Assembly: GCA_903894565.1 (NCBI GenBank)
Contig: CAITQP010000009.1
Location: forward strand, 8,576 to 72,575
Source: an uncultured bacterium
GTDB taxonomy: Bacteria > Patescibacteriota > Minisyncoccia > Phycocordibacterales > UBA9973
Length of the DNA: 64,000 nucleotides
Direction of reading: 5' to 3'
Shown in pieces: positions 2,478 to 64,000 of the stretch. Under the pieces are notes generated by a model. It was given only the letters and a program-made list of their open reading frames with translations. It searched no databases and was not told the origin of the DNA. The stretch's first letter is position 1. Each line of letters starts with the position of its first letter. Position numbers and translations under genes: made by a program.

Positions 2478-3164
2478 CTATCGAATAACTGTTCCAACAA
2501 ATTCTTTCCCGTCGAGATACGCTGAAAGATTTTCCAAATTCTTACCGTTCATTACTGCAACTTCAAGCCCGAGTTCTTGTGCCATCTTGGCAGCAATCGG
2601 ATCAAACGGAGCATTGAATCCAGGATCCCATGTCTCTGGGAGCAGTTTACGGAAGTCGTCCCACGATGATGCTTTAATCGGAGTTGCGGTCGTATCTTTA
2701 CGTGGGTCCGCGGTGTAAACGTAATCAATATTTGAAAGATTGATTACGTTCTTCGCACCAAGTGATTTTGCGAGTGTTACCGCAGCTCCATCACTCGAGT
2801 GACCAGGTTCATATCCGCCACCAACGAGTACAGACTTGCCGGTGAGTGAAAGCTCCCGCGGGTCGAGGTATATCAGAGGCTCAGCAACATCTCCTATCGC
2901 GAGGCGTAACAATTCGGCATTGTATCGAGTCGTATAAATTCCGAGCCAATCGAGTTCATCATTCGATGGAGTGCGTGCTTTGCGAAGTGCGTCTTGATAT
3001 TCGCGACACAATTTTCCACCACCAGTGATGATCGCAAAGCGCTCCCCTTTTTCTGCGCGCGTACGAATGAGTGTACTAATTGCACTCACATAGTCGCCAT
3101 CAACACGGTCAGGACAAATGAGTGACCCACCGAGAGAAATGACTGTCCAAGAAATATTTTCCAT
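2478..3164 (-). CDS. amino acid kinase family protein, putative archaeal-type uridylate kinase
   Basis: 228 aa with ISLGGSLI and ITGGG glycine-rich motifs typical of the aspartate/glutamate/uridylate kinase fold. Lies between adk and map. Confidence 0.5.
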   Translation of the reverse strand: MENISWTVISLGGSLICPDRVDGDYVSAISTLIRTRAEKGERFAIITGGGKLCREYQDALRKARTPSNDELDWLGIYTTRYNAELLRLAIGDVAEPLIYLDPRELSLTGKSVLVGGGYEPGHSSDGAAVTLAKSLGAKNVINLSNIDYVYTADPRKDTTATPIKASSWDDFRKLLPETWDPGFNAPFDPIAAKMAQELGLEVAVMNGKNLENLSAYLDGKEFVGTVIR

Positions 3165-3167
3165 AAA

Positions 3168-3776
3168 TTAAAAACCGAGCGCCTTTTTGATATCTTCATG
3201 CACAGCCTCGATCGACTGCGCGCCATTGATTGTGTGAAGTGTGTATCCAGACTTGGTCTTGAGTGCCTGCATCGCAGGAATGACGTTCGTCTCATATTCC
3301 CAGAATCTACGATTGATACCTTCGTCGGTATCATCAGAACGTCCGCGAAGCTTCATACGTTTGATGACTTCTTCTTTTGAAACTTCGATATATACGATCT
3401 CAACATTCTCGCGTTTGTAAAAATCCATCGCGCTCGTAAAGGCAGCTTCTTGCTCAAGTGTGCGAGGATATCCGTCGGCGATGAGATGGCAATCCGCTGT
3501 GAGTTCACGGATGAGAATATTCGTAAAGACCCCAATGGTCAAGAAATCAGGCTGAAGCTCACCACGCTCAAGTTTGGCCTTCACGAGGCTGCCTGTATAG
3601 CCATCACCGGCAGTCAATGCGCGGTATTCGTTGCCAGGGTAGGCATACACTATCTTGAGACCATCGCGCTCGGCAAGAAGCTTCTTCAAAAGCTCAACTT
3701 GAGTACCCTTCCCAGCCCCCACAATCCCAAAAAATACATAGGTTTTCGGTGCGTTCATATGGCTCGAATATACCAT
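3168..3776 (-). CDS. adk: adenylate kinase (alternative start at 3758)
   Basis: P-loop GIVGAGKGTQ, LID-region RSDD, overall Adk similarity. Confidence 0.85.
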   Translation of the reverse strand: MVYSSHMNAPKTYVFFGIVGAGKGTQVELLKKLLAERDGLKIVYAYPGNEYRALTAGDGYTGSLVKAKLERGELQPDFLTIGVFTNILIRELTADCHLIADGYPRTLEQEAAFTSAMDFYKRENVEIVYIEVSKEEVIKRMKLRGRSDDTDEGINRRFWEYETNVIPAMQALKTKSGYTLHTINGAQSIEAVHEDIKKALGF

Positions 3777-4296
3777 ATCAAACGAGAAGTTACGAGTGCG
3801 AAAAAGGAGCTCCCTTTTTTCGTTTCGCAGCGATTTTCTTAGGGTCGAGCGTCGGCTGAAATGTGAGCTTTCGGTTCCTTCTACTTATAAATACAAAGCT
3901 TGCCCTCGGTCGTGCGTAAGCCACATATTTATACTATACTTGACAAGGTACCGTAATTACAGGGCTTAGAAGCAATGATGAAAAATGTACTCGTCATAAT
4001 ACTGGGTTTATTATTTTGAATTTAAAATAAATATTTTATGGGGCACGAATCATTTGGGTTTGGTGGAATTGATGCTGTTGTTGGCAAGTCAACAGATATG
4101 GAAAAGAAAGTCCTAGTAGAGAAGCTTGAAAATTTCTTCCACGAAGGAACAGTAAATTCTAATATAGGCAGAGAATATTTGCGATTTGAGGTTGGTAAAA
4201 CACCCGAAGATTTGAAAATCATCGAAAAAGCAAATACTTCCACAAGTAAGTATAGGAGCCGGTTTAGACAGGATTTTTTTACCGTCCCTGAAAAAA

Positions 4297-6216
4297 ATGT
4301 ACACATTTTTTTCACACCCAAAACGGATCAACCCAGAGTCAGGTAGAGGGTCCTTTGTTTCAATTGACCAAAGTGTTTTCTTGGAGAGGAGTTCTGATTA
4401 TGACAAGAATTTAGCAGCAGCGACTCATGAATTTTTGCACGCTAAATCACATAATAAACTGAAGGATAAAACATACAAAAGACTATTCGGGCTGCTAAGA
4501 AAGGGTCATCAAGTAGAGACATATCGCTCTGGCCTAATTGTCGTCAGGGAGAACGAGAGAGTCTTTGACAATCTAAATGAAGCAATAGCTGAAAATATTA
4601 CATCAAAAATATGCTGGGGTGACATAAAAAACACGTTATCTCCCGAGCAATTAAAAACTTTTGAAGAATTTTCTCAAGAATTGGGTGTAAAAATTGAAAA
4701 CCTTTATAGGTTCGGTAAAAGCGAACTAGAAAAAGGTACCCTTTCAATTCAGAATCCGTACCTGAAACAATTGCAAATATATAAAAAATTGATTGACACG
4801 GTGGCGCATAACCTAAAGATTCCTTCTGATGAAGTTGAATTTTCGTTCGAAGAAGCATTTTTTACCGGAAAGCTTCATAAAGTTGCTCACATGCTTGATA
4901 ATGCGTGTGGCGCGGGTACGTTTATGGGCCTTGCTCAGGCAGATACTTGCAGTACTCTTGATCCAGTAGAATCTTCACTTAACTCACCGACAAACCTTGA
5001 AAACTGCGTGAATCTGCTAATTTCTGAATCAACAAAAAAAGAGGCGGCGAATAAGGAGATAAAAGAAAACGCATTGAAAGATTTAAAACGATGGATGTAC
5101 GTCTACGACTATTCGAAATTTACGTGGGAGTCCATGTATGACTTTTTGAAGAAAATTAAAATTGAAATTAAAAAAGATGAGAATACCTATAATTATGACC
5201 TAAATAGCTTTGAACAAACAGAATTAACATCGTTGCTTAGAGAATTAGAAGATATTCTACTGACGCAAAAACAAAAATGGATTAGTTCTGTGGAAAAAGG
5301 AAGTAAGGAGTCCCTGCTTTTGAGTACGGGGAATTGGGATATGGGATACGACGGAAAACTTAAACCGCTAGCACAGAACCCTATACTTCTCGGCGGGGTT
5401 CATGGAAATGAAAAAACTTTGCCAGACGAACTGGACAAATTTTTGAGCTATAACAAAGAGACTGGTCAGTATAAACTTGACTCAACCAAGGCATACGTGA
5501 ACCATAAAGTAAATTCTCCGGCGCTAGGAATGGGTGTTCGTTCATATTCGACAACTGATTCTCGTGCTTCTGAGGATGCGGATATGAACCGCTCAGAGAT
5601 TGTCGACGAAGTAACAAAAAAAATAAAGGAAGAAACTTTGAGCCAAATTTCAGGATTTGAAAGGCCGTTTATTCTAGATATGCATAACGACGATAAAAAT
5701 GAAATGCCATACGCGGCTTTTACTGTTCCTGACAATTTTTCTCCAAATGATGCTATCGACGATTCATTGTTATTCAAAATAAAATTAGCAGAAGAACTTG
5801 GCTTAAAAAATTTTACTATGGTGGATCCCGAATTCGCGAATGGAACAATGGTAGGCGATGCAAAAATTAAAAATAAAAATGCTGATGGGATGATTATTGA
5901 GGTTCCCAGTAATGATACAAGCAATATGTCCGCAAAAATTGCGCTGAAATATCTTTCTATGAACAATGTTGTAACGGGACTTGGGTTCAGCAAGACGAGT
6001 GTTCCATTTCAACTTGAAAATTCCTTAAATGATTCTTTTCTTGCCGTTACAACAGATGATGAAATCGAAATCGTTTACTATAAGGTAAATAAAAACGTTG
6101 ATGAGAATCTGCACCCAAAAAATCAAGTCCCGGATAGAGAATATATGATTCGTAACAATGTACCGATAGAGGTCCAGAAACTAAAGATAAAGAATGGATT
6201 TTTCACTTCTGATTAA
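4297..6216 (+). CDS. large hypothetical protein with C-terminal AstE/AspA-like (succinylglutamate desuccinylase/aspartoacylase) zinc hydrolase motifs
   Basis: 639 aa, visibly AT-rich. GGVHGNE (H369, E372), DADMNR (N430, R431) and DMH (H463) match the HxxE, NR and H zinc/substrate motifs of the AstE/AspA family, with similar spacing. Confidence 0.55.
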   Translation: MYTFFSHPKRINPESGRGSFVSIDQSVFLERSSDYDKNLAAATHEFLHAKSHNKLKDKTYKRLFGLLRKGHQVETYRSGLIVVRENERVFDNLNEAIAENITSKICWGDIKNTLSPEQLKTFEEFSQELGVKIENLYRFGKSELEKGTLSIQNPYLKQLQIYKKLIDTVAHNLKIPSDEVEFSFEEAFFTGKLHKVAHMLDNACGAGTFMGLAQADTCSTLDPVESSLNSPTNLENCVNLLISESTKKEAANKEIKENALKDLKRWMYVYDYSKFTWESMYDFLKKIKIEIKKDENTYNYDLNSFEQTELTSLLRELEDILLTQKQKWISSVEKGSKESLLLSTGNWDMGYDGKLKPLAQNPILLGGVHGNEKTLPDELDKFLSYNKETGQYKLDSTKAYVNHKVNSPALGMGVRSYSTTDSRASEDADMNRSEIVDEVTKKIKEETLSQISGFERPFILDMHNDDKNEMPYAAFTVPDNFSPNDAIDDSLLFKIKLAEELGLKNFTMVDPEFANGTMVGDAKIKNKNADGMIIEVPSNDTSNMSAKIALKYLSMNNVVTGLGFSKTSVPFQLENSLNDSFLAVTTDDEIEIVYYKVNKNVDENLHPKNQVPDREYMIRNNVPIEVQKLKIKNGFFTSD

Positions 6217-6318
6217 CAGGAAAAGTCTACACCGGATCGTATAATTATTTATCAAATTTAAGAATGTTCAGTCCCCGAAATCAAATCGACGACCGAATCG
6301 AAACCGCATTTGCTTGCA

Positions 6319-6429
6319 CAAAAAAGCCACACACTACGGGAAGGACTCTCGGAGCGCGACGGCGCGAGAGGGAGGCGACATTTCTTCGGAAATGTACGCC
6401 GGTCCTTACTGTAGTGTGTGGCTTTTGTG
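6319..6429. repeat. structured GC-rich repeat element, family 2, copy A
   Basis: Core cggagcgcgacggcgcgag..gaggcga..tacgc.ggt is shared with 27678-27796. Flanked by a ~19-bp inverted repeat (caaaaaagccacacactac / gtagtgtgtggcttttgtg). Inner hairpin has a cttcgg loop. Confidence 0.6.
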
Positions 6430-6456
6430 TGCGCGCAGATGCGGGCAAGAACAGTC

Positions 6457-7731
6457 TTAGTACTCGTGCATCGAAATCTGAGCATCAACCTTTTTGATGA
6501 GGTCGAGAATCACAGAAACGACGATGAGAAGTGCCGTACCTCCAAGCGCAATCGAAGTGATACCAGTGACGGCACGAGCAACGAGTGGCAAGACGGCGAT
6601 GACACCGAGGAACAATGCTCCAACGAGCGTGATACGTGAGACCACACCTGAGAGATACTGTTCGGTCGAAAGACCTGGACGAATACCGGGGATGAAGGCA
6701 CCTCCCTTCTGGAGATTTTCCGCCATCTGCTGTGGATCAAACGTCACTGCTGTATAGAAGTAGGTGAAGACGAACACGAGCACGAAGTAGATGATGCCGT
6801 AGAGCCATGTCGTCTGCGAGAAATTCGCAAGCGCACGACCAATAGCAAGCAAGTGACTATTGTGAGCAAACGTCGTCATGAGATTTCCAATGAGCTGCGG
6901 CAAGAGCAAGATTGAGAGCGCGAAGATGATTGGGATCACTCCAGCTTGGTTCACACGAAGTGGAACGTACGTTGAAACTCCTCCAGTCGATCCTCCTCCA
7001 CGTACCTGACGTGCATACGTAACAGGGATTGGGCGCTCAGCTTCCGTGATCACAACAACACCAACGATGAGCGCGAGCCCAAGGATGATGAAGAGTGCGT
7101 AAAATGGAATCTGTGCGACACTGAATGTGAAGAGTGTCTGACTAATGTGTGTTGGAAGTGCGGCAATAATACCAGCGAAAATGATGACTGAAATACCGTT
7201 TGATACTCCAAATTCTGTCATCACTTCTCCAAGCCACATGAGGAAGAGTGATCCTGCAGTCACAACCACGAGACTCGTGATGAGCGCGACTGGCGCAAGA
7301 TGACTAAAGATTCCCTGCTTCTCAAGGAGCAACATGAGTCCGAGACCCTGCAAGAGCGCAAGCGGAATTGCAAGAATACGTGAGTATTGTGCAAACGTCT
7401 TACGTCCTGCCTCACCTTCGTCTTGGTTCAACGCCTTCAAGCGAGCACTCATCATCGTGAGCAACTGCATGATAATCGAAGCCGTAATGTATGGTCCAAC
7501 ACCAAGCATGATGATCGAAAGCGTCGTGAGTCCTCCTCCAGAGAAGAGGTTCAACACTCCGAAGAACTGGTTGTTCGCGAGAAATTGTGCGAGACGAGCT
7601 GGATCAACTCCAGGAACTGGAATTGTCGCAAGCAAGCGGAAGACCACGAGCAAACCAAGCATGACGAACATGCGGTTGCGCAAAGCCTTATCGCGCCAAA
7701 TGATCTTGAGCTTTGAAAAAAAAGTATTCAT
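6457..7731 (-). CDS. secY: preprotein translocase subunit SecY
   Basis: 424 aa, 10-TM profile, SecY signature regions, follows rplO. Confidence 0.95.
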   Translation of the reverse strand: MNTFFSKLKIIWRDKALRNRMFVMLGLLVVFRLLATIPVPGVDPARLAQFLANNQFFGVLNLFSGGGLTTLSIIMLGVGPYITASIIMQLLTMMSARLKALNQDEGEAGRKTFAQYSRILAIPLALLQGLGLMLLLEKQGIFSHLAPVALITSLVVVTAGSLFLMWLGEVMTEFGVSNGISVIIFAGIIAALPTHISQTLFTFSVAQIPFYALFIILGLALIVGVVVITEAERPIPVTYARQVRGGGSTGGVSTYVPLRVNQAGVIPIIFALSILLLPQLIGNLMTTFAHNSHLLAIGRALANFSQTTWLYGIIYFVLVFVFTYFYTAVTFDPQQMAENLQKGGAFIPGIRPGLSTEQYLSGVVSRITLVGALFLGVIAVLPLVARAVTGITSIALGGTALLIVVSVILDLIKKVDAQISMHEY

Positions 7732-10205: not shown

Positions 10206-10391
10206 TTACCAAGACGACTTACGGACGCCCGGGATCATGCCTTCATTGGCAAGTTCACGGAAACAGATTCGACAAAGTCCGAAATCACGCATAAAACCTC
10301 GACCTCGGCCACACTTAAAACAACGATTCTTCGCCCTTGTTGAGAACTTCGGCGTGCGCGTAGCGCGATATTTTGTTGATGTCTTTGCCAT
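10206..10391 (-). CDS. rpsZ: 30S ribosomal protein S14 type Z (zinc-binding)
   Basis: 61 aa MAKTSTKY...[23 protein letters not shown] with a CxxC..CxxC zinc ribbon. The upstream ATG at 10424 is rejected as a spurious extension. Confidence 0.85.
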
Positions 10392-10591
10392 AGTGAAAAT
10401 AGGAGGCCCGCCAGCGCGTATCACGTGTTTGTTCTTTATATCCCTAGAGCAGGAGAAACCTAGGAAACTAAAGGAGAAAAACGGACGCCACTGACTTAAT
10501 CTGCCTCGACGCTCATATTATCAGATTTTCGCTTCGTGTCAACTCACCTCACCCACCACGATCACTATCTTATGCAGATTACCACATTCTA

Positions 10592-10620
10592 TTGACATTA
10601 GCATCTATAGAGTGTATAAT
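10592..10620 (+). promoter_or_regulatory. consensus sigma70-like promoter (TTGACA-17-TATAAT)
   Basis: ttgaca at 10592-10597, 17-nt spacer, tataat at 10615-10620, about 24 nt upstream of the ATG at 10644. Confidence 0.5.
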
Positions 10621-10643
10621 GATAATACAACCAAAAATAAGTT

Positions 10644-10913
10644 ATGTTCTCAACTAAAAATTTGTTAAGCCCAGGAGCACTATTCGGGCATTTCGCAACA
10701 CTTGTGCAGATCGTACTGGTATTTACCGTGCCTACGATTCTGCCACTGCGCTTTTTGTTTTTTTCCCTGATTCCAATCGGAGTCAGCGAAATGATGTTCC
10801 TACTTGGAGCATTCGGACTTGCTAAGCAAAAGAGGGCGGCATTCGTGCTGTTCATATTAGCAGGAATGATGATCGTAGCAACAATGTTTCAATTATTTTT
10901 CTTGCGCAAGTAA
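10644..10913 (+). CDS. small hydrophobic membrane protein
   Basis: 89 aa with three hydrophobic segments, directly behind a consensus promoter. Confidence 0.4.
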   Translation: MFSTKNLLSPGALFGHFATLVQIVLVFTVPTILPLRFLFFSLIPIGVSEMMFLLGAFGLAKQKRAAFVLFILAGMMIVATMFQLFFLRK

Positions 10914-10969
10914 CAGCCCCTCAACCTTATTCTTAAGCAGGCACTATCAATTAGTGTCTGTTTTTGCAT

Positions 10970-11806
10970 CTACTCCTCGATGTGAGTTCTCACGAGTGAG
11001 TACAAACAAGCCTCAATACCAAAAGCCTGCCCAATATCGTGCGCAAATTGTCGAACATAAAATCCGCTCGAAACAGTAAGCTCAACTTTGACCGTGAGTA
11101 ACTCATCAGGTAGGTCTCGGGCACACTGTGTCCACGTCTCAAGAATTTCGGCTTGACGAAAATCACCCTGAACAATACTCGTGAGTTTTTGGACTCGATC
11201 AAGTACTTCAGCTCGAGTGCGTGAGCCGACCGTGAGGTCGGTGTATGAAATGAGCTCCACATCATGTTTCGGCAAAAGAACCTCATTCCCCGCCCGCGCA
11301 TGCGTATGAAGCTGAATACCATCTACCGTCTTTGAAGAATATGCTGGATACTGTTGTTGGAATTTACCGATCATTTTTTTAAGAAATGCTTCAACGTGCG
11401 CAGAAATTTCCAAACATTCTTTTGAAAAGGCAACTCGTCGCGCGTGCTCGCGCGCGAGCTTCTCGGCGCCAAGCGCCTGCGAAAGGCCTTCTTCAAAAGA
11501 ATGTTTGGAAATTTCTGCGCAGGTAGAAGGAATACCCAACAAATCATATGTATCAGTTGATACACTAAAAATAATTTCGGCTACATACGTTTTAGAGAGT
11601 CCGCTGTAAGCGTCTTTGTTTTTACATTCCTCACCCACGAGGATAATCAGTTCACCTTCCGCGGCTGGGTCAAGTCGCCCCGCATACGTCATCGGAACAC
11701 TCGCATCAATCCCTTCGCTCGCGCGGAGTCGCTCCAAACAAACAAGCGGGGTTTCTCCCCACTCTTTGTATACGCGATATACGTTTTTTATACCTTCGCT
11801 TGCCAC
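10970..11806 (-). CDS. truB: tRNA pseudouridine(55) synthase TruB carrying an in-frame 41-aa insertion encoded by a palindromic repeat element
   Basis: MTYAGRLDPAAEGELIILVGE...KTYVAEI.FSVSTDTYDLLG and MIGKFQQQYPAYSSKTVDGIQLH match the TruB GxLDP and GxIxQxPPxYSAxK motifs. The frame is continuous through the 123-bp repeat at 11398-11520. Confidence 0.7.
   Translation of the reverse strand: MASEGIKNVYRVYKEWGETPLVCLERLRASEGIDASVPMTYAGRLDPAAEGELIILVGEECKNKDAYSGLSKTYVAEIIFSVSTDTYDLLGIPSTCAEISKHSFEEGLSQALGAEKLAREHARRVAFSKECLEISAHVEAFLKKMIGKFQQQYPAYSSKTVDGIQLHTHARAGNEVLLPKHDVELISYTDLTVGSRTRAEVLDRVQKLTSIVQGDFRQAEILETWTQCARDLPDELLTVKVELTVSSGFYVRQFAHDIGQAFGIEACLYSLVRTHIEE
11398..11520. repeat. structured repeat element, family 1, copy 1 (inside the truB coding sequence, in frame)
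   Basis: 80-bp core ttttgaaaaggcaactcgtcgcgcgtgctcgcgcgcgagcttctcggcgccaagcgcctgcgaaaggccttcttcaaaag is flanked by a perfect 22-bp inverted repeat gcgcagaaatttccaaacattc / gaatgtttggaaatttctgcgc. Length 123 = 41 codons. Confidence 0.7.
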
Positions 11807-12366
11807 GCCGTGTACGCCTCCAGAATCATTTGCTCAACTGTCGGAATATCATTCACTTTTGTATCAATCACCAAATCAAAATGGCTCGGGTCCTGGTAAT
11901 TTTCAATGGCGTAATATTTGTTGTAACGTTCTTTCTCACTCGCAAGTCGCTCAGAAAGTCGTGTCTTCACGTCGATGAGTGTCTCTGACATTTCCTCCTT
12001 GCGTTCAGATTTCTTGGCTTGAATATCGCCGAACACACGAGCACCCGCCGTATCCAAATCAAGATTCAAAAATACTTTGAATGAATCAGGTGCGAAAAAC
12101 CATCCAATACGTGAATCAATCACAAAATTGTTATTGCTATCCATGAAGGCTTTTTGCTTGGCATCGATTTCACGATCAACCGCTGGGTCATTTTCTGCAA
12201 GGAGGTTGAGTTCAACGATAGTCAGCCCACGCTCACTCGCCATCGCACGCATGAAGTCCCCAGCCGAGTAGTGCGGATAGCCGAGCGCTGTGGCCACACG
12301 CTTGGCAGCGGTTGATTTGCCTGAACCGAGCATGCCACAGATGGTGATGATGTTGCGCTTTTGCAT
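11788..12366 (-). CDS. cmk: cytidylate kinase-like nucleoside monophosphate kinase (P-loop)
   Basis: ITICGMLGSGKST Walker A and overall CMP-kinase-like layout. Start chosen at MQKRNIITICG. Confidence 0.5.
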   Translation of the reverse strand: MQKRNIITICGMLGSGKSTAAKRVATALGYPHYSAGDFMRAMASERGLTIVELNLLAENDPAVDREIDAKQKAFMDSNNNFVIDSRIGWFFAPDSFKVFLNLDLDTAGARVFGDIQAKKSERKEEMSETLIDVKTRLSERLASEKERYNKYYAIENYQDPSHFDLVIDTKVNDIPTVEQMILEAYTAWQAKV

Positions 12367-12446
12367 AGGCGAAGAATAGCACGACTCGAGCAAAATAAAA
12401 AATAACCACCCAATCCTGAGTAGTTATTTTCTATTATTATTTATAT

Positions 12447-27677: not shown

Positions 27678-27796
27678 GGGAAAACCACAAAATGCCCTTG
27701 TGAAAGTATCCGCGGAGCGCGACGGCGCGAGCGTGAGGCGAAAATCCTTCAGGATTTTACGCTGGTACTTTCACAAGGGCATTTTGTGGTTTTCCC
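27678..27796. repeat. structured GC-rich repeat element, family 2, copy B, in the rpsL leader
   Basis: Perfect 31-bp inverted repeat gggaaaaccacaaaatgcccttgtgaaagta / tactttcacaagggcattttgtggttttccc. It flanks the conserved core cggagcgcgacggcgcgagcgtgaggcga and the hairpin gcgaaaatcc-ttca-ggattttacgc. Confidence 0.65.
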
Positions 27797-27798
27797 GC

Positions 27799-29973
27799 CT
27801 ACACCTTGAATTTGCTCGACAAGTAGCCTTTTGAAACTGTGGCAGGCATGTCGGTGACCGCTGTTTGGTAGGTGCCGTCGGGCATTTTGCGATCAATGCG
27901 AATCTTGTAGTCGGCGTTTGGAAGGAGTGCGTAGTATCTTCCTTGCGCGTCGGCGATACGGTGCATGACTTCAACACCCGTTGAAACAGATGCTATACGA
28001 ATAAGCGCAAATGAAAGTGGTAAACCTGTTTTCGCATCCGTAATATCTCCATATGGTCGTGAATGTTTGCCGTATTGTCGGAGGAAGAAAAGTCCAACAT
28101 ACAAAACAAGCACAATAATGTTATATGGCTTCGGCGCAAAGACTGTTGCGAGCATTGCGATAACAAATCCCGTGCCGAAAAGCACGTCAGATACTCGACG
28201 AAAGATTTTGCCGCGACGGGAATAGAACTTCATGAGGTTCTGCTGATTTTTTGCAAATTCATTCCAATCGAAATTCATTGGATCCATTGGAATATTTTTG
28301 ATCACAACATCCCCCGCGTTCTCAACAGTGAAGTGTTCACCGAAATACAAGTCACGGTAGAGTTCGTCATGGTCACGTCCGACGAGCTGTTGTGATGGGA
28401 AAAGATAATTCGTTTTTTGAGCAAAGATTGAGTACACACCTGGCTTTGGCACAACGAATCCGAATCGTCCATCAAGGTCGGTCAAATTGGAAACAACATC
28501 TTCTCCTTCAATAGTTCGAAGTGTTACATATGCAGGATCAAGTGGTTGCTTTGTAATACTGTCATAGACAGTACCCCACGGCTGATGACGTTTGCGCAAA
28601 CCAAGTGCGGCAAGAAGAAGCGACCACAAACGAGCTGGGATCAAGAAAATTTCAGAGAATGAAAGTGGATTCAAAAAGAGTGCCGTGAAAATTGAGGTGG
28701 CAGCACTTGCGACTACTCCGACTGTCGCTACAACAGCTTCGGCTTTTGTCGCAGTACCTGTTCCGAGAATTGCTTTTATTTTTTTGTACGTCGTGCCAAC
28801 CGTCTGCGTCGTATTACAGTAACTATTTTTTACTTGCCCAATAACTTCTCCGACGATGTCAGTTGCAGTAGAAATCGGACAACCACCACCACTTCCAGTT
28901 GTTGTCGTCGTATGAACAATTGCGTAGACACACGTTCCTGATTGACGAAAATTGCTTGCCGTTGGGTCGGTACACTGTGTGCTTGCATAGGTGCAAGGAA
29001 AAGCGCCGAGATAATTGCTCGCGGTTGCATCAAGACACAGTGGTGGTGGTGCATAGGTACACGCACCAGTCGCTCCATAGTTTGTAGCTGCTGTATCAGT
29101 ACACGTTGTTGCGTACGAACACGGCAATGCTCCGCCATAGTTTGTAGCTGAACGATCCCGACACAATAATGCATACGTACAAGCACCCGAAGCACCGTAG
29201 TTTGTCGCCGTTGTATCAGTACAAATACGCGGATAGACACATGATCCAATTGCGCCATAATTTGTTGCAGTTGTATCAGTACACGTCAGAGTATAGGTAC
29301 ATGGTAATGATCCACCAAAATTCGTCGCCGTTCGGTCCTGACACAATAATGCGTAAGTACAAATACCAGCCGAACCATAATTGGTAGCGGTCGTGTCGGT
29401 ACAGAGTGTTGGATACACACACGGCAATGATCCTCCGTAGTTGAGCGCAGTTCGATCGAGACAAATGAGTGGAGGAGGCGGAGTTGTGTGTGTCGTGACA
29501 ACAACAGTTGGGCGCCAATCAGTCTTCACACAGGCGTCAGTCTTCGTACAATCAAACAGCATCCAACCTCCACCGGACACCCATGCATATCCAGAAAATT
29601 CTCCAGTGCTTGGGTTGATTGTGACTCCTCCGTGCGTAGGGTTGAAGTTCACCCAACTCGCGGTCGAGCCCCACGCATCTCCCGTAACTGTACCGCTCGT
29701 TGTGTTGTGCACTCCCCCGCTTACTGGCGCAAGATTAATCCAACCCAATTTGTTTGACCAGATATATCCGAAAAGCGTGGTGTCACTCACCGAAACTCCT
29801 CCACCATTTGTAGGTTTCCAATTGACGATTGAATACGCCGAGCAGTCTTCATTCGAACACAATCGAGCCGTGTGACTCGTCGCGTCTATTCCTCCCGTCG
29901 AAGCAAAAAGTGCGACCGGAATGAGAAATCCGATAACACTCGCAATCAGAATGAAAAGACGTGAGAGACGCAT
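27799..29973 (-). CDS. large membrane/surface protein with nine 20-aa Cys-containing tandem repeats and C-terminal TM/beta-sandwich-like region
   Basis: 724 aa. N-terminal signal/TM. GY(I/A)W..GW(I/V).F(N) repeats. 9x C.D.TATNYG....C.Y... repeats. Several TM helices later in the sequence. Confidence 0.6.
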   Translation of the reverse strand: MRLSRLFILIASVIGFLIPVALFASTGGIDATSHTARLCSNEDCSAYSIVNWKPTNGGGVSVSDTTLFGYIWSNKLGWINLAPVSGGVHNTTSGTVTGDAWGSTASWVNFNPTHGGVTINPSTGEFSGYAWVSGGGWMLFDCTKTDACVKTDWRPTVVVTTHTTPPPPLICLDRTALNYGGSLPCVYPTLCTDTTATNYGSAGICTYALLCQDRTATNFGGSLPCTYTLTCTDTTATNYGAIGSCVYPRICTDTTATNYGASGACTYALLCRDRSATNYGGALPCSYATTCTDTAATNYGATGACTYAPPPLCLDATASNYLGAFPCTYASTQCTDPTASNFRQSGTCVYAIVHTTTTTGSGGGCPISTATDIVGEVIGQVKNSYCNTTQTVGTTYKKIKAILGTGTATKAEAVVATVGVVASAATSIFTALFLNPLSFSEIFLIPARLWSLLLAALGLRKRHQPWGTVYDSITKQPLDPAYVTLRTIEGEDVVSNLTDLDGRFGFVVPKPGVYSIFAQKTNYLFPSQQLVGRDHDELYRDLYFGEHFTVENAGDVVIKNIPMDPMNFDWNEFAKNQQNLMKFYSRRGKIFRRVSDVLFGTGFVIAMLATVFAPKPYNIIVLVLYVGLFFLRQYGKHSRPYGDITDAKTGLPLSFALIRIASVSTGVEVMHRIADAQGRYYALLPNADYKIRIDRKMPDGTYQTAVTDMPATVSKGYLSSKFKV
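28923..29478. repeat. 60-bp tandem coding repeats (about 9 units) encoding the Cys-x-D-x-T-A-T-N-Y-G repeat
   Basis: Periodic DNA similarity and periodic protein sequence CTDTTATNYG..G.CTY.. within the CDS. Confidence 0.6.
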
Positions 29974-32446: not shown

Positions 32447-32460
32447 GGTTAGTAAAATTA

Positions 32461-32556
32461 AAAAACTCTTTTGAAAAGGCAACTCGTCGCGCGTGCTCGC
32501 GCGCGAGCTTCTCGGCGCCAAGCGCCTGCGAAAGGCCTTCTTCAAAAGAGTTTTTT
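32461..32556. repeat. structured repeat element, family 1, copy 2; doubles as bidirectional terminator between sod and comEC
   Basis: Identical 80-bp core to copy 1. Flanked by aaaaactcttttgaa / ttcaaaagagttttt, with T-runs on both strands. Confidence 0.7.
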
Positions 32557-34057
32557 AATTTTGCTCCACTTTTTCACTGTTCCATTTTCGATACAGCCAA
32601 TATATTAAACACACATATATAAATAAGCATAGCCATAGTGGAAAATGTTTAATGACAACTGAGGCGAATGGAACACGCGCGAAGAATTGTACGGCTCCTG
32701 TGATGTAGCTGAGGAGATAGTGTGTGATGAGCGAGGCGGGATATGCGAGTCCTAGACTGAATGCTCCGATGAGTCCCGCAAGTGCGCCGAAGCCCATGGC
32801 GAGTGGTACGGCAGGCAGGATTGCTACGTTTGCAGGAAGTGCGATGAGTGAGAGCGTGCCCATTTTGTAGAGGATGAACGGCAAGACTCCCGTTTGTGCG
32901 CCGAGGGTCACTGACATTAATTCGCGCAGTGGAATAATGTATGCGACTTTTTTGGGAACACGCGCGAATGCACGCTCGAGCACCGGAGTGACAAAGAGGA
33001 TACCGAGCGTAGCGAGGTATGAGAGTTGGAATGATACGTCGTAAACGAGATATTTTGGATCGTAGAGAATCATCAAAAATCCGGCGACGATGAGCGCGCG
33101 AAATGCATCGTACGTGCGACCCTTGGTCCGTGCAAAAAGTCCAATGAGTGCCATGATGCCCGCACGGATTGCCGATGATTGCATGCCTGTCATTACGACA
33201 AAGAGCACGATACAGAGCGCCCCACTCGCCGAAGCGACGCGCATAGAGAGACCAAGAATATCGACGAAAAAACTTTGCAGTGCGTTTGCGACAACTGTCA
33301 CGTTGTATCCCGAAAGTGCAATCATGTGAATCGTGCCAGTCGTGACGAGGTCGTCGCGAAATTGTGGATCAATGTTTGCTTTGACTCCGAGATTGAGACC
33401 GGCGAGAAGATCGGCTTGTGGTGCAGGCAAAATACGATGAAACGATTTTACAATTACATTTTTTACGGGAATCAAATGAGCGACAACCCAATTGCCATGA
33501 TTATGTTCGAGCACAGTCGCGCTCGCATTTTTGATTTGATACACAATGTTATTTTTATACAAATATGAAATGTAATCGAATTCAGTACCTTGATCGGTCA
33601 TGAAATTCTCGGGACGTGCGAGTGTGCCGTGCACAAGCACAGTATCGCCGTACGCGAGATTCATATTTGATTTCGTGCGAACAGAAAAACTGAGGCCGGG
33701 TGTTTCGAGCGTAAAACTATCTCCATATGATTTTGCCGACGGTTCGTCGACGATGAGTCCCTCGACCGTAACGCTTGTGCCGATATTATTTTCAAAATCT
33801 TTTGTATTTGGTTTAGCGATTTCTGCACGATATGCCCCGAGCACAAATGCACAGATGAAGAGACTCGCGAAGAGTGTGTATGATCTCGCCCTCTGGATGA
33901 AAGTGGCGATGATGAGGAGGCAAACGCCGACCGCCCCCGCGACGATAGTCGCGGGGGCGGTCATATGAGAAAGCGAAGCAAAAATAATTCCGGTGGCAAA
34001 GCCTACAATACCAGAAGCCAAATATACATCTATGTTTTGTGAGCGAGCGTGCTCCAT
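32555..34057 (-). CDS. comEC: ComEC/Rec2 family competence protein (membrane domain)
   Basis: 500 aa polytopic membrane protein. IHMIALSGYNVTVVA matches the competence-domain signature. Confidence 0.75.
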   Translation of the reverse strand: MEHARSQNIDVYLASGIVGFATGIIFASLSHMTAPATIVAGAVGVCLLIIATFIQRARSYTLFASLFICAFVLGAYRAEIAKPNTKDFENNIGTSVTVEGLIVDEPSAKSYGDSFTLETPGLSFSVRTKSNMNLAYGDTVLVHGTLARPENFMTDQGTEFDYISYLYKNNIVYQIKNASATVLEHNHGNWVVAHLIPVKNVIVKSFHRILPAPQADLLAGLNLGVKANIDPQFRDDLVTTGTIHMIALSGYNVTVVANALQSFFVDILGLSMRVASASGALCIVLFVVMTGMQSSAIRAGIMALIGLFARTKGRTYDAFRALIVAGFLMILYDPKYLVYDVSFQLSYLATLGILFVTPVLERAFARVPKKVAYIIPLRELMSVTLGAQTGVLPFILYKMGTLSLIALPANVAILPAVPLAMGFGALAGLIGAFSLGLAYPASLITHYLLSYITGAVQFFARVPFASVVIKHFPLWLCLFIYVCLIYWLYRKWNSEKVEQN

Positions 34058-51029: not shown

Positions 51030-51162
51030 CCGAGCAGGAACAAAAGCACACACCTCCTTTGAAGAAGGCCTTTCGCAGGCGCTTGGCGCCGAGAAGCCCG
51101 GCCGCGAGCACGCGGAACGGGTTGCCTTTTCAAAGGAGGTGTGTGTGCTTTTGTTCCTGCTC
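51030..51162. repeat. structured repeat element, family 1, copy 3 (reverse orientation) upstream of tig
   Basis: Core is the reverse complement of copies 1 and 2, with a few substitutions. Flanked by a perfect 34-bp inverted repeat ccgagcaggaacaaaagcacacacctcctttgaa / ttcaaaggaggtgtgtgcttttgttcctgctcgg. Confidence 0.7.
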
Positions 51163-60223: not shown

Positions 60224-60979
60224 ATGCCCATAGAGCTCACAACCATCCTCGAAAAAACCGGTCTCTCCAAGAAGCAGGCCGACGTATACCTCGCTCTCCT
60301 TGAGCTTGGTGAGGCATCAATGACAGAAATTTCGAAGCGTGCGAACCAGAAGCGCCCTACCACCTACCTCATCGTCGAAGAACTCGAGCTCGTTGGTCTC
60401 GCCTCGTCCGTCAAAAAGGGTAAGAAAAAAATCTATATGCCTGCACATCCTCGTCGTCTCGCCGAACTGACAAAGTTTCGTATGGACCAAGTCGGCGACG
60501 TAATGCCAGAACTCCTTGCTCGTTACAAATCGGAATCAACCAAACCAAAGATTGAAATGTTTGAAGGTATCGAAGGCGTTCGTAAGGCATACCGTGAAGC
60601 ATTTAGTTTACTTTCTGAACACAAGGAAGGCCTCTGGATCAGCGACATTGAACGTGTGCTCGAAAAATTTCCCGAAGTCCTCAAAGAATACGACAAACTT
60701 GTACGAAGTATTCGCGACCCACGCATTCGTGAAATCACATTTGGCGGAGGGCCGGCTCGCGCATGGGTAGAACACATGCAAAAGGATCACAGCAAATACT
60801 GCAAAGTAAAGTATATGGGCGATCGTGGCCACATCGGTGCTCTCGATCAGCTCATCGTCGGAAACAAGGTCATGAGCTTCTCGCTCAACAAAGATATTTT
60901 TGTCCTCATTACAGAAAGCGAAGCACTAGCAGAAACTCAGCGTGGACTCTTCGAACTTTTGTGGAATCAAAAAAACTAA
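60224..60979 (+). CDS. TrmB-family transcriptional regulator
   Basis: N-terminal winged HTH LGLSKKQADVYLALLELGEASMTEISKRANQKRPTTYLIVEELELVGL typical of TrmB. 251 aa. Confidence 0.65.
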   Translation: MPIELTTILEKTGLSKKQADVYLALLELGEASMTEISKRANQKRPTTYLIVEELELVGLASSVKKGKKKIYMPAHPRRLAELTKFRMDQVGDVMPELLARYKSESTKPKIEMFEGIEGVRKAYREAFSLLSEHKEGLWISDIERVLEKFPEVLKEYDKLVRSIRDPRIREITFGGGPARAWVEHMQKDHSKYCKVKYMGDRGHIGALDQLIVGNKVMSFSLNKDIFVLITESEALAETQRGLFELLWNQKN

Positions 60980-62721
60980 ATCACTTCTGCTTGATAACAT
61001 GCTTCGCAATACACAAGCTCAGCACGATCCGGTGAATATGCAGTCTCAAATTGATTCAAGCACTTTCCTTCGTGATGAGGGTGGCTATTCTCACACATAC
61101 ATGCACGGTGCCAAAGCTTGTTTGGGTTACGATCAACTACGCGCATGTAGTGACGGCAGTTCGGACAAAGTCTTGGAAGTGGCAAACTATGAGCGCGATA
61201 AAACTGTAATTCCTGTGCTGTGACACGGAATGCGGTAGCGCACTGATCATTACATTCCCCTTTATGAGCACAGCCTATAATCGCAGATACAATATCGTCA
61301 TCTATTTCCAGAATATCATCCGGTAATTCTTCCGGAGAATGTGTGATTTCATAATTTTTAATTTTTCGATTTTTCCATGGAAAACCGTTTCCTTCAGCAA
61401 AATCTTTTGTTATCGGGAAAAATTCTTGAGCTGAGGTTTCATTGTACGCAAATTGTGAGATTTCAATCGGCATAAAATCTCCGTAGGAGTATCCCCTCTC
61501 CTTCGAGTCGATATAAGGCATCATTTTCATCTGTTCTATTATTTTTGGGATCAGTTCATCGTATTCCTCTTTTGAATATTGCTTGTTCAAAATACAATAC
61601 TGTTTACCCCGAAGGCCGACACATCCGAAACAATTGTTATTATTGTTGAATAAGTACAAACAATATCGTAACGCCCGTGCTTCGATAGAATTCACACAAC
61701 CAATAATGTCACTAATATTTTTCCCACATGTTAATGATTCATAGACGCGTTCGGTATTTTCACCAAATTGAGTAAAATCATAGCACTCTTTATTCCCCTT
61801 AATTATGAGCCACATGCAATACTTACAATACTCAGACTCATTCACGATAAACGAATTGTCGGAAAATTTTGAGTTGTAAATATAATCGCCAGTTGAATTC
61901 AGATTTTGTAAACCGTGCATATATTTATGCGGAAACTGTAACCAGAAATCTCGAACCTGTTTTTTCATGTCAGCCACGAATGAATGCGAGCCAAGGTTAA
62001 ATTCTTTTATTTTTTCCGCATACTCATCTTTACTAAACTGCTCGTTGAAAATACAGTATGACTGATTACGCAAATTGATACACCCGAAACAACTCGAGCA
62101 TCCTGAAAGATTTTTTGAGAACCATGTATTATGTGAACTCTCGCAGTCGACAGAATAATATATCTCATAACACTTATTACAATTCAAACTTTCATACCCC
62201 ATCTGTGTACCCTCAATCATTGTCACATCGACTGAATCACGTGAACGCTCAACTTCTTCTCCATACATACACGACTCGTTATAATCAGAATTAAAAAGAT
62301 AATAACAATTTTTCAATGCATGGTTCATGTTTGTAAAACTACTATTCTCAAGTGTTTTGTAGCTAACAGCAAGATGCTGATACGGAACTTTTTTTATAAG
62401 CTCTGCGAGTTGGGAAAAAAATGATTTTGAAAAATCATATTCCTTTCCGTATGTCGTCGCGTCCCATTTATCGCTCCACCAGCACTCACCACAATAACTC
62501 GTAATCCCTGCTTCTGGATCGTACATCGAAATCGTACTCACACCACACATATCGCATGGTCTCTTATAAAGAGAGCGTTCATTACGAAATGAAAGACGAC
62601 GTTGCAATCGACAATCGGGACAAAACGTTGGCGCTGGCACATTCATTTTTCCGTAAAAATCAAAGTCAGTAGATGTAACAACAAAATCATTTTTGCAGTT
62701 TTGGCACACTCGTGTCTCCAT
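60976..62721 (-). CDS. Cys-rich multi-zinc-ribbon protein, paralog 3
   Basis: 581 aa with the same CxxC-terminal ribbons and central Cys modules. Its stop overlaps the stop of the convergent TrmB gene by 4 nt. Confidence 0.7.
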   Translation of the reverse strand: METRVCQNCKNDFVVTSTDFDFYGKMNVPAPTFCPDCRLQRRLSFRNERSLYKRPCDMCGVSTISMYDPEAGITSYCGECWWSDKWDATTYGKEYDFSKSFFSQLAELIKKVPYQHLAVSYKTLENSSFTNMNHALKNCYYLFNSDYNESCMYGEEVERSRDSVDVTMIEGTQMGYESLNCNKCYEIYYSVDCESSHNTWFSKNLSGCSSCFGCINLRNQSYCIFNEQFSKDEYAEKIKEFNLGSHSFVADMKKQVRDFWLQFPHKYMHGLQNLNSTGDYIYNSKFSDNSFIVNESEYCKYCMWLIIKGNKECYDFTQFGENTERVYESLTCGKNISDIIGCVNSIEARALRYCLYLFNNNNNCFGCVGLRGKQYCILNKQYSKEEYDELIPKIIEQMKMMPYIDSKERGYSYGDFMPIEISQFAYNETSAQEFFPITKDFAEGNGFPWKNRKIKNYEITHSPEELPDDILEIDDDIVSAIIGCAHKGECNDQCATAFRVTAQELQFYRAHSLPLPRLCPNCRHYMRVVDRNPNKLWHRACMCENSHPHHEGKCLNQFETAYSPDRAELVYCEACYQAEVI

Positions 62722-62736
62722 ATATTTTTTGATTAT

Positions 62737-62786
62737 CTCACAATTAACCCGCGAGCGACACTCGTGGACTAAATAGTGGGCTCATC
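62737..62786 (-). promoter_or_regulatory. conserved leader/promoter motif, copy upstream of paralog 3
   Basis: See 59223-59292. Contains the hairpin ggctcatc-ggaaat-gatgagcc and a TGaGATAAT extended -10-like element 14 nt before the ATG. Confidence 0.5.
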
Positions 62787-63187
62787 ATTTCCGATGAGCC
62801 AACCACCACAAAAGATTATACTTTCGGAGCAGCCATAATATACATGTCCCAGTTATTACAAATACCATCGCCAAACTATATCTATAAACTGCATCAAGCC
62901 ACCAAAATAGTTCACTGGCCAGTAGATGGCAGAGTAGGACCGTCATTATTTGATCGAAAATCTTATCAAAAATGGGCTTCCATAATTTACGAGGATTGGC
63001 AGAAAAATTATGGACATAGATCAATAACAGCAAGAATAAATTTATCTTCACCGAATGCACACTTGGACACAAGGACTTTGTCGCAATAACACAGTGTATT
63101 GTTGGTGCTAAATATCCTGTAGAAAGTACAACAAGGCCAAGCTCTACCAAAATGAGAATAAATACTAATGGATGACGTTTTTCCATG
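62785..63187 (-). CDS. small polytopic membrane protein (start chosen at MEKRHPLVFILIL)
   Basis: C-terminal 134 aa of ORF 62785..63666. The upstream part of that ORF is antisense to the TrmB paralog and is rejected. Confidence 0.3.
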
Positions 63188-63328
63188 TTACATATTTTGA
63201 ATGTGAAATTATTTCCTACATTATCCAACGGTTTGCTTTTTCTGTCATATTTGTCAACAAATTCTTTATATATGGACAAAAAACCATATTTTATATAGTA
63301 TAAATGTTGTAGGATTTTCCAACAGATT

Positions 63329-64000
63329 ATGCGAAACGACCAAAAAATCATCGATTCTCTCACAGACTTCGGTCTCGAGAAAAACGAGGCGACTGTGTAT
63401 CTCGCTTCTCTTTCGCTCGGCCCGACCACAATACTAAAGCTTGCGAACCAGTCTGGCGTGAACCGCACGACTGTATACGAGATCGTCGAGGCGCTTGAAC
63501 ACAAAGGACTCATGAAAAAAGAGATCCATGGCTTAAAAACACTCTTCTCCCCCGAGCATCCCGACCGCCTCGAGAATACACTCTCTCGAAAACGCGAGGC
63601 GCTTACGAAACTTCTCCCAGAGCTTGAGAGCAAATACCACCTAAAAGGTTCTGGAAGTACAATCAAGTATTACGAGGGACTCTCCGCCATCAAAAATCTT
63701 TACGGCGATCTTGCACACGAACTCAAACCAACTGATTTCTACTATGTCGTTTCAAACACAGCCGAATGGGAAGCAATCGATGACAACTATTTTCGCAAAG
63801 AGCACGTGGAAATTTTTTCGCAAAAACGTGTCGATCGACGAGTACTCTTTGTCGATTCACCTGAGGCACAAGCACGCAAAAAATATGAGCGTAATTTCAA
63901 CGAAGTCGTAAAGATACTCCCGCCTGACTCAAACATCCACGTCGACCTCTGCATCACACCGTACAAGCTTGTTATCTTTCAACTTCATCAACCGCTTGTC
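63329..64000 (+). CDS. TrmB-family transcriptional regulator, paralog, 3' end outside window
   Basis: MRNDQKIIDSLTDFGLEKNEATVYLASLSLGPTTILKLANQSGVNRTTVYEIVEALEHKGL wHTH. Frame open to the window end. Confidence 0.6.
   Translation, partial: MRNDQKIIDSLTDFGLEKNEATVYLASLSLGPTTILKLANQSGVNRTTVYEIVEALEHKGLMKKEIHGLKTLFSPEHPDRLENTLSRKREALTKLLPELESKYHLKGSGSTIKYYEGLSAIKNLYGDLAHELKPTDFYYVVSNTAEWEAIDDNYFRKEHVEIFSQKRVDRRVLFVDSPEAQARKKYERNFNEVVKILPPDSNIHVDLCITPYKLVIFQLHQPLV

Follow-up and report, generated by a model that had tools for sequence, protein, structure and literature searches.

The 64,000 nt stretch of DNA analysed here (the window) comes from a Patescibacteria (Candidate Phyla Radiation, CPR) genome of the Paceibacteria type, and its secY and adk genes are separated by a gap of 2680 bp (3777-6456) that holds a plus-strand open reading frame (ORF) of 639 aa (4297-6216). 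Our data favour, with a probability of roughly 60%, the view that this gap harbours one laterally acquired gene at positions 4038-6216, which codes for a soluble 725 aa fusion of two zinc-hydrolase modules and is frameshifted at a run of seven thymines (T7). The N-terminal module is probably a gluzincin-type metallopeptidase without a curated family, as judged from its motifs, and the data support placing the C-terminal module, strongly divergent in sequence, in the AstE/AspA (aspartoacylase/succinylglutamate desuccinylase, M14-like) superfamily, with all zinc ligands, the substrate and transition-state residues and a probable general base. Nowhere else were the two modules found together; elsewhere they reside on separate proteins.

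A phmmer search of 1.84 billion representative proteins returned 33 matches, which fall into two non-overlapping sets. One set consists of proteins of ~400 aa that cover ORF residues ~250-632, the other of proteins of ~300-340 aa that cover ORF residues ~15-238. The coordinates of all features discussed below are collected in Table 1.

The AstE/AspA-type C-terminal module

The C-domain family comprises seven members of ~400 aa with 31-46% identity to ORF residues 239-639, and one of them is annotated as "Patescibacteria group bacterium". The family is very small, with 8 clusters at E < 1e-30 among the representatives searched. Four of the seven members match PF24827 (AstE_AspA_cat; best E = 6.3e-6). 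The homologue P0003 (26.3 bits) and three more distant ones (P0018, 31.9; P0020, 42.1; P0021, 32.0) lie above its gathering score of 25 bits, and the match of P0018 spans positions 5-186 of the 192 in the profile. An AlphaFold2 (AF2) model of the domain, calculated from the 7-sequence alignment, reached a pLDDT of 83.3 and a pTM of 0.85. A Foldseek comparison of this model with the PDB gave 33 matches at E ≤ 1e-3, all of them to AstE/AspA-family proteins, ASPA (human, rat), DoeB/EutE, aminoacylase-3 or Csd4, with a probability of 1.0 and alignments of ~320 columns. The best match was AstE (1yw4, E = 6e-9). The model has the carboxypeptidase-like alpha/beta fold and a C-terminal beta domain. 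Profile-based searches of PDB sequences yielded chance matches only, for either domain.

To assign catalytic residues we aligned the family profile to human ASPA, whose reference sequence was checked and is identical to PDB 2o4h. The hhalign comparison was significant (E = 5.6e-5; E = 0.002 with 7 sequences) and paired H369/E372/H463 with ASPA H21/E24/H116, and R415, N431 and R432 with R63, N70 and R71. In ASPA, H21, E24 and H116 are the zinc ligands, and R63, N70 and R71 are substrate-carboxylate or transition-state residues (PMC5412892). Among 14 family sequences H369, E372 and H463 are invariant, as are R415 and R432, whereas N431 shows a conservation of at least 90%. These residues lie in the motifs HGNE (369-372), DMNR (429-432) and DMHN (461-464), and H369 and H463 are 94 residues apart. 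A first-pass annotation of the window had already assigned the C-terminal half to this family, and fold, Pfam matches of the homologues and the residue alignment to human ASPA all bear this out; its positions for HGNE and DMHN and the spacing are right as well, and its DMNR was one residue off. E535, in the motif DGMxIE, is at least 90% conserved and lies 72 residues past H463, compared to 62 in ASPA; it is likely the equivalent of E178, the general base of ASPA. By eye, G516-T517 lies opposite the stretch with the substrate-specific residues Y164/R168 of ASPA, suggesting that the substrate is probably not N-acetyl-aspartate.

The module thus shares with the AstE/AspA family (PF24827/PF04952; ASPA 2o4h, AstE 1yw4, DoeB/EutE 6twm, aminoacylase-3 3nfz) the fold, the HxxE...H triad with a spacing of 94-95 residues, the R...DxNR and D(M/L)HN motifs, the C-terminal beta domain and a soluble nature. 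It differs from them by an identity of ~13-15% and in that the window protein, taken alone, does not pass the Pfam model. Unlike canonical AstE/AspA enzymes, it also carries a conserved helical extension of ~110 aa, with helices at 2-31, 39-47, 69-93 and 99-104 in the AF2 model, and a fused second hydrolase domain.

As Csd4 structures gave significant fold matches too (E = 2e-5, probability 1.0), we considered that the C-terminal domain is a peptidoglycan-peptide hydrolase (a Csd4/Pgp1- or MpaA-like carboxypeptidase/amidase) instead of an N-acyl-amino-acid deacylase. Helicobacter pylori Csd4 and Campylobacter Pgp1, which as M14 DL-carboxypeptidases trim muramyl tripeptide, share the M14-like fold with the module, are multi-domain proteins like the window protein and act on small peptides, and a fused peptidase-like domain likewise suggests a peptide substrate. 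However, AstE, ASPA and DoeB outscore Csd4, the rmsd to Csd4 is ~20 Å over the whole chain, the accessory domains are different, and Pfam places the homologues in AstE_AspA_cat. No cell-wall genes were present in the 4 genomic contexts examined. Csd4 is exported, and Csd4 and Pgp1 act in the periplasm, whereas the window protein has no signal peptide. Hydropathy profiles revealed neither a signal peptide nor a membrane segment in the repaired protein or in any homologue: the maximum Kyte-Doolittle value over 19 residues was 0.75 in the repaired protein and at most 1.52 in the homologues, where the maximum was never N-terminal. This favours a cytoplasmic pair of amide-bond hydrolases over an exported murein hydrolase, and a murein-peptide-amidase activity of the kind that the first-pass annotation linked to a host-dependent lifestyle would have to be cytoplasmic. 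Taken together, we regard a peptidoglycan hydrolase as an unlikely identity of this domain, although it fares better than the other alternatives discussed below.

A second domain upstream and the frameshift at T7

In the second set of phmmer matches the ORF aligned at target residues ~105-330; ORF residue 20 pairs with target residue ~107, and ~90 target residues are missing from the 639 aa ORF. These residues are encoded directly upstream by a 102 aa ORF in another frame (MGHESFGFGGIDAVVGK...FEVGKTPEDLKIIEKAN...FFTVPEKNVHIF), which aligns to the N-termini of the proteins of this set. We built a hidden Markov model (HMM) of the N-domain family from 15 stand-alone homologues, leaving out the window sequence. 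The upstream ORF matched positions 5-89 of this 323-position family (E = 1.7e-20) and the 639 aa frame positions 100-307 (E = 3.6e-45). Homology exits frame 0 after EKNVHIF and re-enters in frame +1 at SHPKRINPESG. This break between NVHIF and SHPKRINPESG places the lesion in the T7 run (4306-4312), and deletion of one T from the run results in a continuous ORF of 725 aa. Over their full length, the 327 N-terminal residues of the repaired protein can be aligned with the 15 stand-alone proteins of ~320 aa. The T7 run and an A7 run (4291-4297) are part of a perfect 12 nt palindrome, TGAAAAAAATGT/ACATTTTTTTCA (4289-4300/4303-4314); the A7 run was rejected as site of the shift, since the upstream frame still shows homology beyond it, as far as NVHI. 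From the sequence alignments we read the gene as spanning 4038-6216 on the plus strand, coding for 725 aa and split by a 1 nt frameshift at T7.

The repaired N-terminal part contains residues that are invariant in 16 sequences, namely H130, E131 and H134 of an HExxH motif and E181 in NLNEA(V/I)TE, which correspond to residues 44, 45, 48 and 95 of the 639 aa ORF. The glutamate, a candidate for the third zinc ligand, is located 47 residues past the second histidine; the corresponding spacing in anthrax lethal factor is ~45. The AF2 model of this module (pLDDT 82.6, and 87-97 for the part encoded by the upstream ORF) shows three beta strands, the HExxH helix (residues 121-136 in repaired numbering), a four-strand beta insertion, a long helix opened by NEAxxE (177-199) and a helical bundle, and a gluzincin would be expected to show this order. 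The bundle comprises ~130 aa with a conserved FExAYFTGxLxKL, terminates in FEEAFFTGKLHK and is without known counterpart. Like small zincins (SprT-like, IrrE/ImmA M78, phage PolyVal) and gluzincins with a distant third ligand, the module carries HExxH on a helix that follows beta strands, with an invariant glutamate in the next long helix. It differs from them by the four-strand insertion between the two helices and the additional helical bundle, and in showing no significant match in sequence or in PDB fold to any curated peptidase family.

No family match for this domain was obtained in Pfam, NCBIfam, PDB sequences, PHROG or PADLOC. A fold search of BFVD gave weak matches only, to an uncharacterised phage protein (E = 0.01) and to SprT-like, IrrE-like and PolyVal metallopeptidases (probability 0.6-1.0). 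A word-indexed homologue search with the repaired N-terminus was empty, but it also missed the protein itself and is hence uninformative; the exhaustive HMMER search found the family. Further loci of the family were located in metagenomes with a 6-sequence subset of the alignment. Among the 15 aligned homologues and 16 metagenome loci the domain is encoded by single ORFs except in L104, in which the gene is split elsewhere. In this locus the family copy is distributed over two ORFs (L104:3-491 and 495-893), so that breakage within the family is not confined to the window, and another locus carries tandem paralogues (L102:3-176 and 148-1161). The genome with the homologue P0004 has FtsH annotated as two ORFs that overlap (L086:4026-5571; FtsH_ext, and AAA plus Peptidase_M41), possibly due to a frameshift.

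Both halves of the gene are free of additional stops and every family-invariant residue is kept. The lesion should therefore be recent, bypassed or, less likely, an error. Most likely it is a very recent inactivating mutation; alternatively, it could be partly bypassed by slippage of the polymerase or the ribosome.

That the frameshift arose erroneously in sequencing or assembly, and that the organism has an intact and functional 725 aa fusion gene, would agree with the open reading frames of both halves, with the preserved catalytic and family-invariant residues and with the position of the shift exactly in a T7 run. We nevertheless consider this improbable. The Logan assembly is identical in sequence including T7, the two split products are on record from 4 contigs, and the intact 725 aa product is absent from a collection of 15 billion proteins. 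The window contains 40 further A/T runs of 7-8 nt, and the genes that were checked stay in frame there. The window showed no further split gene, and its other overlapping ORF pairs represent distinct genes (PGK/TIM, ComEC/RNase H/RecJ). Intact genes at the other homopolymers give no sign of a systematic homopolymer error.

Even less probable is an intact 639 aa protein with a novel, motif-less stretch of ~330 residues ahead of the AstE/AspA domain, as the first-pass annotation had proposed. The ORF is indeed open, starts with ATG, contains the complete C-domain and is deposited as a protein in the public annotation. However, it begins at position 100 of the 323-position family, the preceding 90 positions are found just upstream in the other frame, and its N-terminal region contains the invariant HExxH and NEAxTE motifs. 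The gene has its real 5′ end at 4038, and the supposedly featureless region, with HEFLH at 44-48 and E95 in NLNEAIAEN, belongs to a protein family of its own.

We give very little credence to the idea that the A7/T7 palindrome is a functional switch (slipped-strand phase variation, or transcriptional or translational slippage) that yields full-length protein in a fraction of cells or transcripts: three 7 nt homopolymers do lie within 40 nt (4274, 4291, 4306), the last two forming the palindrome at the shift site, and the gene shows no other decay, but the frameshift is not conserved in the 31 N-domain homologues examined, the runs are accounted for by AT-rich codons of conserved F-F, E-K-N and I-F residues, slippage is rare at 7 nt tracts, no stop or rare codon that would stimulate a +1 shift is present, and T7 is the only allele on record.

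The secY-adk junction and probable acquisition of the gene

The genes flanking the insert are encoded on the minus strand and comprise L15, secY (6457-7731), adk (3168-3776), a PyrH-like kinase gene (2478-3164) and map (1701-2474), with secY and adk both identified by Pfam matches. In order to compare this arrangement with that of relatives, we retrieved 80 secY loci (L006-L085). Most of them carry labels such as Paceibacterota, Nomurabacteria or Patescibacteria; the labels of a few seem to be wrong. The nearest relative shows 67% SecY identity. A homologue of the inserted gene near secY occurs in 0 of the 80 relatives. In the 66 relatives with both genes, secY and adk are separated by less than 200 bp in 32, by 200-1000 bp in 27 and by more than 1 kb in 7. 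The inserts at this junction measure 0.2-3.2 kb and mostly carry extra P-loop nucleotide kinases (cytidylate-, guanylate- or adenylate-kinase-like) on either strand. The string had been regarded as tight, a view that does not hold up well for this group: the gap exceeds 200 bp in 34 of the 66 relatives, usually with an extra kinase gene that is often encoded on the other strand. In Paceibacteria, about half of the genomes carry an insert between secY and adk, which makes the junction a recurrent site of insertion, and an interruption of the secY-adk-map string, which often receives extra genes, is by itself unremarkable. One relative (L059) has a reverse-transcriptase-like ORF in the gap. The PyrH/UMP-kinase-like gene of the amino-acid-kinase family between adk and map is present in a subset of relatives only (e.g., L006-L008, L010, L047).

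The base composition of the insert deviates from that of its host. GC content is 0.383 in the secY-adk segment and 0.370 in the 639 aa ORF, compared to 0.452 in the window, and 4001-6000 is the 2 kb block with the lowest GC. In a set of 69 non-overlapping ORFs with a length of 100 aa or more (mean GC 0.458, sd 0.038), the inserted gene ranks second lowest (z = -2.3), and its GC at third codon positions (GC3) ranks sixth (z = -1.5). Position, length and low GC of the 639 aa ORF had thus been described correctly beforehand, and an AT-rich insert does split secY and adk, but it reaches to ~6300 only; the region 6217-6456 has a GC of 0.50 and contains a native structured repeat. Family members elsewhere have a GC of 0.34-0.41 in genomes of 0.375-0.47, which makes a Patescibacteria donor with lower GC plausible.

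Absence of the gene from the 80 relatives and its differing composition fit a lineage-specific acquisition. We therefore interpret the gene as a lineage-specific insertion, and the 67% SecY identity of the nearest relative leaves its date wide. The earlier suggestion of horizontal acquisition, based on composition and location, fits these data. Neither outcome that would have spoken against the first-pass reading was observed: an AstE/AspA fold was predicted, and none of the relatives has the gene with normal composition at the same site. The segment is flanked by short, imperfect two-copy repeats only; a direct repeat (D10, 15 nt, 80% identical) that was considered as a target duplication was judged to be due to chance. 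The spacer between adk and the inserted gene (3777..4037) would presumably hold the promoter of the gene together with a new adk promoter; a consensus scan found no sigma-70-like site in it, and no similarity to relatives was found. Scans for promoter and terminator consensus sequences and for tRNAs in and around the insert gave nothing useful, and the entire 64 kb contain 0 tRNA genes and 0 Rfam matches. In the whole window, a Shine-Dalgarno-like motif precedes 4 of 35 confident start codons.

Several points weigh against a laterally acquired, frameshifted fusion of two zinc hydrolases. The window protein itself reached no threshold in Pfam (even at E up to 10), NCBIfam or PDB sequences, and with its homologues matching Pfam, its membership is transitive; the AstE/AspA assignment rests on fold and transitive homology. 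The Foldseek TM-scores are only 0.39-0.48, and the hhalign alignments end before E535, leaving the pairing with E178 uncovered. For the N-domain model Foldseek found no significant match in the PDB, and the term metallopeptidase is based on motifs. A consensus error could underlie the frameshift, as the sequences compared are assemblies and the second may derive from the same reads. The GC3 deviation is modest, and neither integrase or mobility genes nor a tRNA nor a convincing target duplication was found beside the insert.

Proposed role and structured repeats

The fusion in the window is unique, as no partner domain was found nearby at 16 metagenome loci of the N-domain or at 3 loci of the C-domain with usable flanks. 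Other combinations were observed in homologues: P0011 (646 aa) joins an AstE/AspA-like domain to an unrelated C-terminal region of ~280 aa with kinase-like motifs by eye, and P0031 (617 aa) joins the HExxH domain to a tail with a second HExxH (HEKGH). The genomic contexts of the homologues are heterogeneous and give no pathway clue. An association with phages or defence was not seen in PHROGs, PADLOC or viral contigs, and we found no description of either family in CPR bacteria in the literature.

Whereas the domain homologies, the conservation of residues, the frameshift and the lack of the gene in relatives can be read directly from the data, zinc binding, activity, substrate and biological role are what we infer. 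The intact protein would act as a cytoplasmic, zinc-dependent pair of amide-bond hydrolases. The peptidase module would cut a peptide, and the AstE/AspA module would remove an N-acyl group or else a residue at the terminus, acidic or gamma-linked, possibly for the salvage of peptides or of compounds resembling murein peptides. As sequenced, the gene would yield a 102 aa fragment and the 639 aa ORF that starts within the first domain.

A more far-reaching combination of these observations would see a new family of gluzincin-like peptidases, apparently mostly from Patescibacteria-like genomes, and a one-off fusion serving as dedicated two-step enzyme for salvage of peptides or acyl-amino acids in an auxotrophic episymbiont and toggled by slippage at the A7/T7 palindrome; separately, the Y-shaped repeats described below may be structured elements, mobile or regulatory, of a new class in CPR genomes. 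We consider this highly speculative. Overall, the locus represents a divergent form of known kinds of enzymes in an unusual, possibly dead fusion, and not a new kind of system. CPR/Patescibacteria genomes are rich in unannotated proteins, and the present analysis provides a small orphan clade of AstE/AspA-like enzymes with a fold and a putatively complete set of catalytic residues and marks a second orphan family as probable metallopeptidase. It also indicates that both domain types can share one polypeptide and corrects the public annotation, in which one frameshifted gene appears as two "hypothetical proteins". The practical value is limited, as the copy in the window may be a fresh pseudogene.

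Table 1. Features of the inserted gene, its flanks and the structured repeats (window positions unless a locus is named; residue numbers refer to the 639 aa ORF)
Feature	Position	Strand	Remarks
Spacer from adk start to start of inserted gene	3777..4037		AT-rich, GC 0.38
Real 5′ part, residues 1-91 of the N-terminal metallopeptidase-like domain	4038..4311	+	called as separate 102 aa ORF 4038-4346, other frame
639 aa ORF as called	4297..6216	+	internal ATG start, inside N-terminal domain
T7 homopolymer, frameshift site	4306..4312	+	minus one T (or plus two) fuses the frames into a 725 aa ORF
Rest of N-terminal HExxH domain, residues 6 to ~238	4312..5010	+	HMM positions 100-307
HEFLH, residues 44-48	4426-4440	+	invariant HExxH in 16 sequences
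E95 in NLNEAIAEN	4579-4581	+	putative third zinc ligand, invariant in 16 sequences
Family-specific helical extension, ~110 aa, ahead of catalytic domain (YDYSKFTWESMY...NTYNYDLNSF)	5014..5346	+	conserved in 7/7 family members
AstE/AspA-type catalytic domain and C-terminal beta domain	5347..6216	+	fold, hhalign, residue conservation
H369	5401-5403	+	zinc ligand by alignment
E372	5410-5412	+	zinc ligand by alignment
R415	5539-5541	+	aligned with ASPA R63
N431-R432	5587-5592	+	aligned with ASPA N70/R71
H463	5683-5685	+	zinc ligand by alignment
E535	5899-5901	+	probable general base
GC-rich Y-shaped palindromic element between the stops of inserted gene and secY	6304..6444	+	141 nt hairpin, predicted RNA fold energy -95.6 kcal/mol, z = -12.6
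Second window copy of Y-shaped element	27685-27800	+	three-way-junction core 27700-27774, different outer stem
Copies of Y-shaped element in relatives	L039:4053-4127, L053:9972-10044, L010:11434-11505, L029:14144-14215	opposite secY	covariance model
Second palindromic repeat family, three copies	11418-11500, 32467-32549, 51055-51137		same architecture as Y-shaped element

The structured repeat between the stop codons of the inserted gene and secY is a Y-shaped palindromic element. A covariance model was made from its two copies in the window and used to search the relatives. The core of ~75 nt has a conserved three-way junction, and the long outer stems are copy-specific. All copies lie on the strand opposite to ribosomal-protein or secY genes, and the copy in L039 directly follows secY as in the window. 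Compensatory changes were observed for 18 of 25 base pairs in the 6 copies, and 95% of the cells are paired, compared to at most 48% in slid controls. The element belongs to the lineage itself rather than to the insert, of which it marks the right edge. We rejected a plain bidirectional terminator as full explanation because of the conserved three-way core, the multiple copies and the covariation across genomes; candidates for its nature are an RNA motif, a REP/MITE-like repeat and a bidirectional terminator of elaborate form.

Two copies of the second palindromic repeat family have the same 83 nt core, to which the third is 90% identical, and the self-complementary outer arms differ between the copies at 11400-11520 and 32450-32570. 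The predicted energies are -62 to -74 kcal/mol. Rfam has no model for either repeat family. The copy at 11400-11520 is located within the TruB ORF (10970-11806, minus strand), which reads through it in frame (residues 96-136), a situation that we liken to the in-frame read-through of Rickettsia palindromic elements. In the same region (10206-12393, minus strand) the ribosomal-protein operon continues after S8/S14 into truB and a cytidylate-kinase-like gene (11788-12393), and not into L5/L24/L14. Another low-GC stretch, with genes at a GC of 0.38, is located at the right end of the window (60976-63513).

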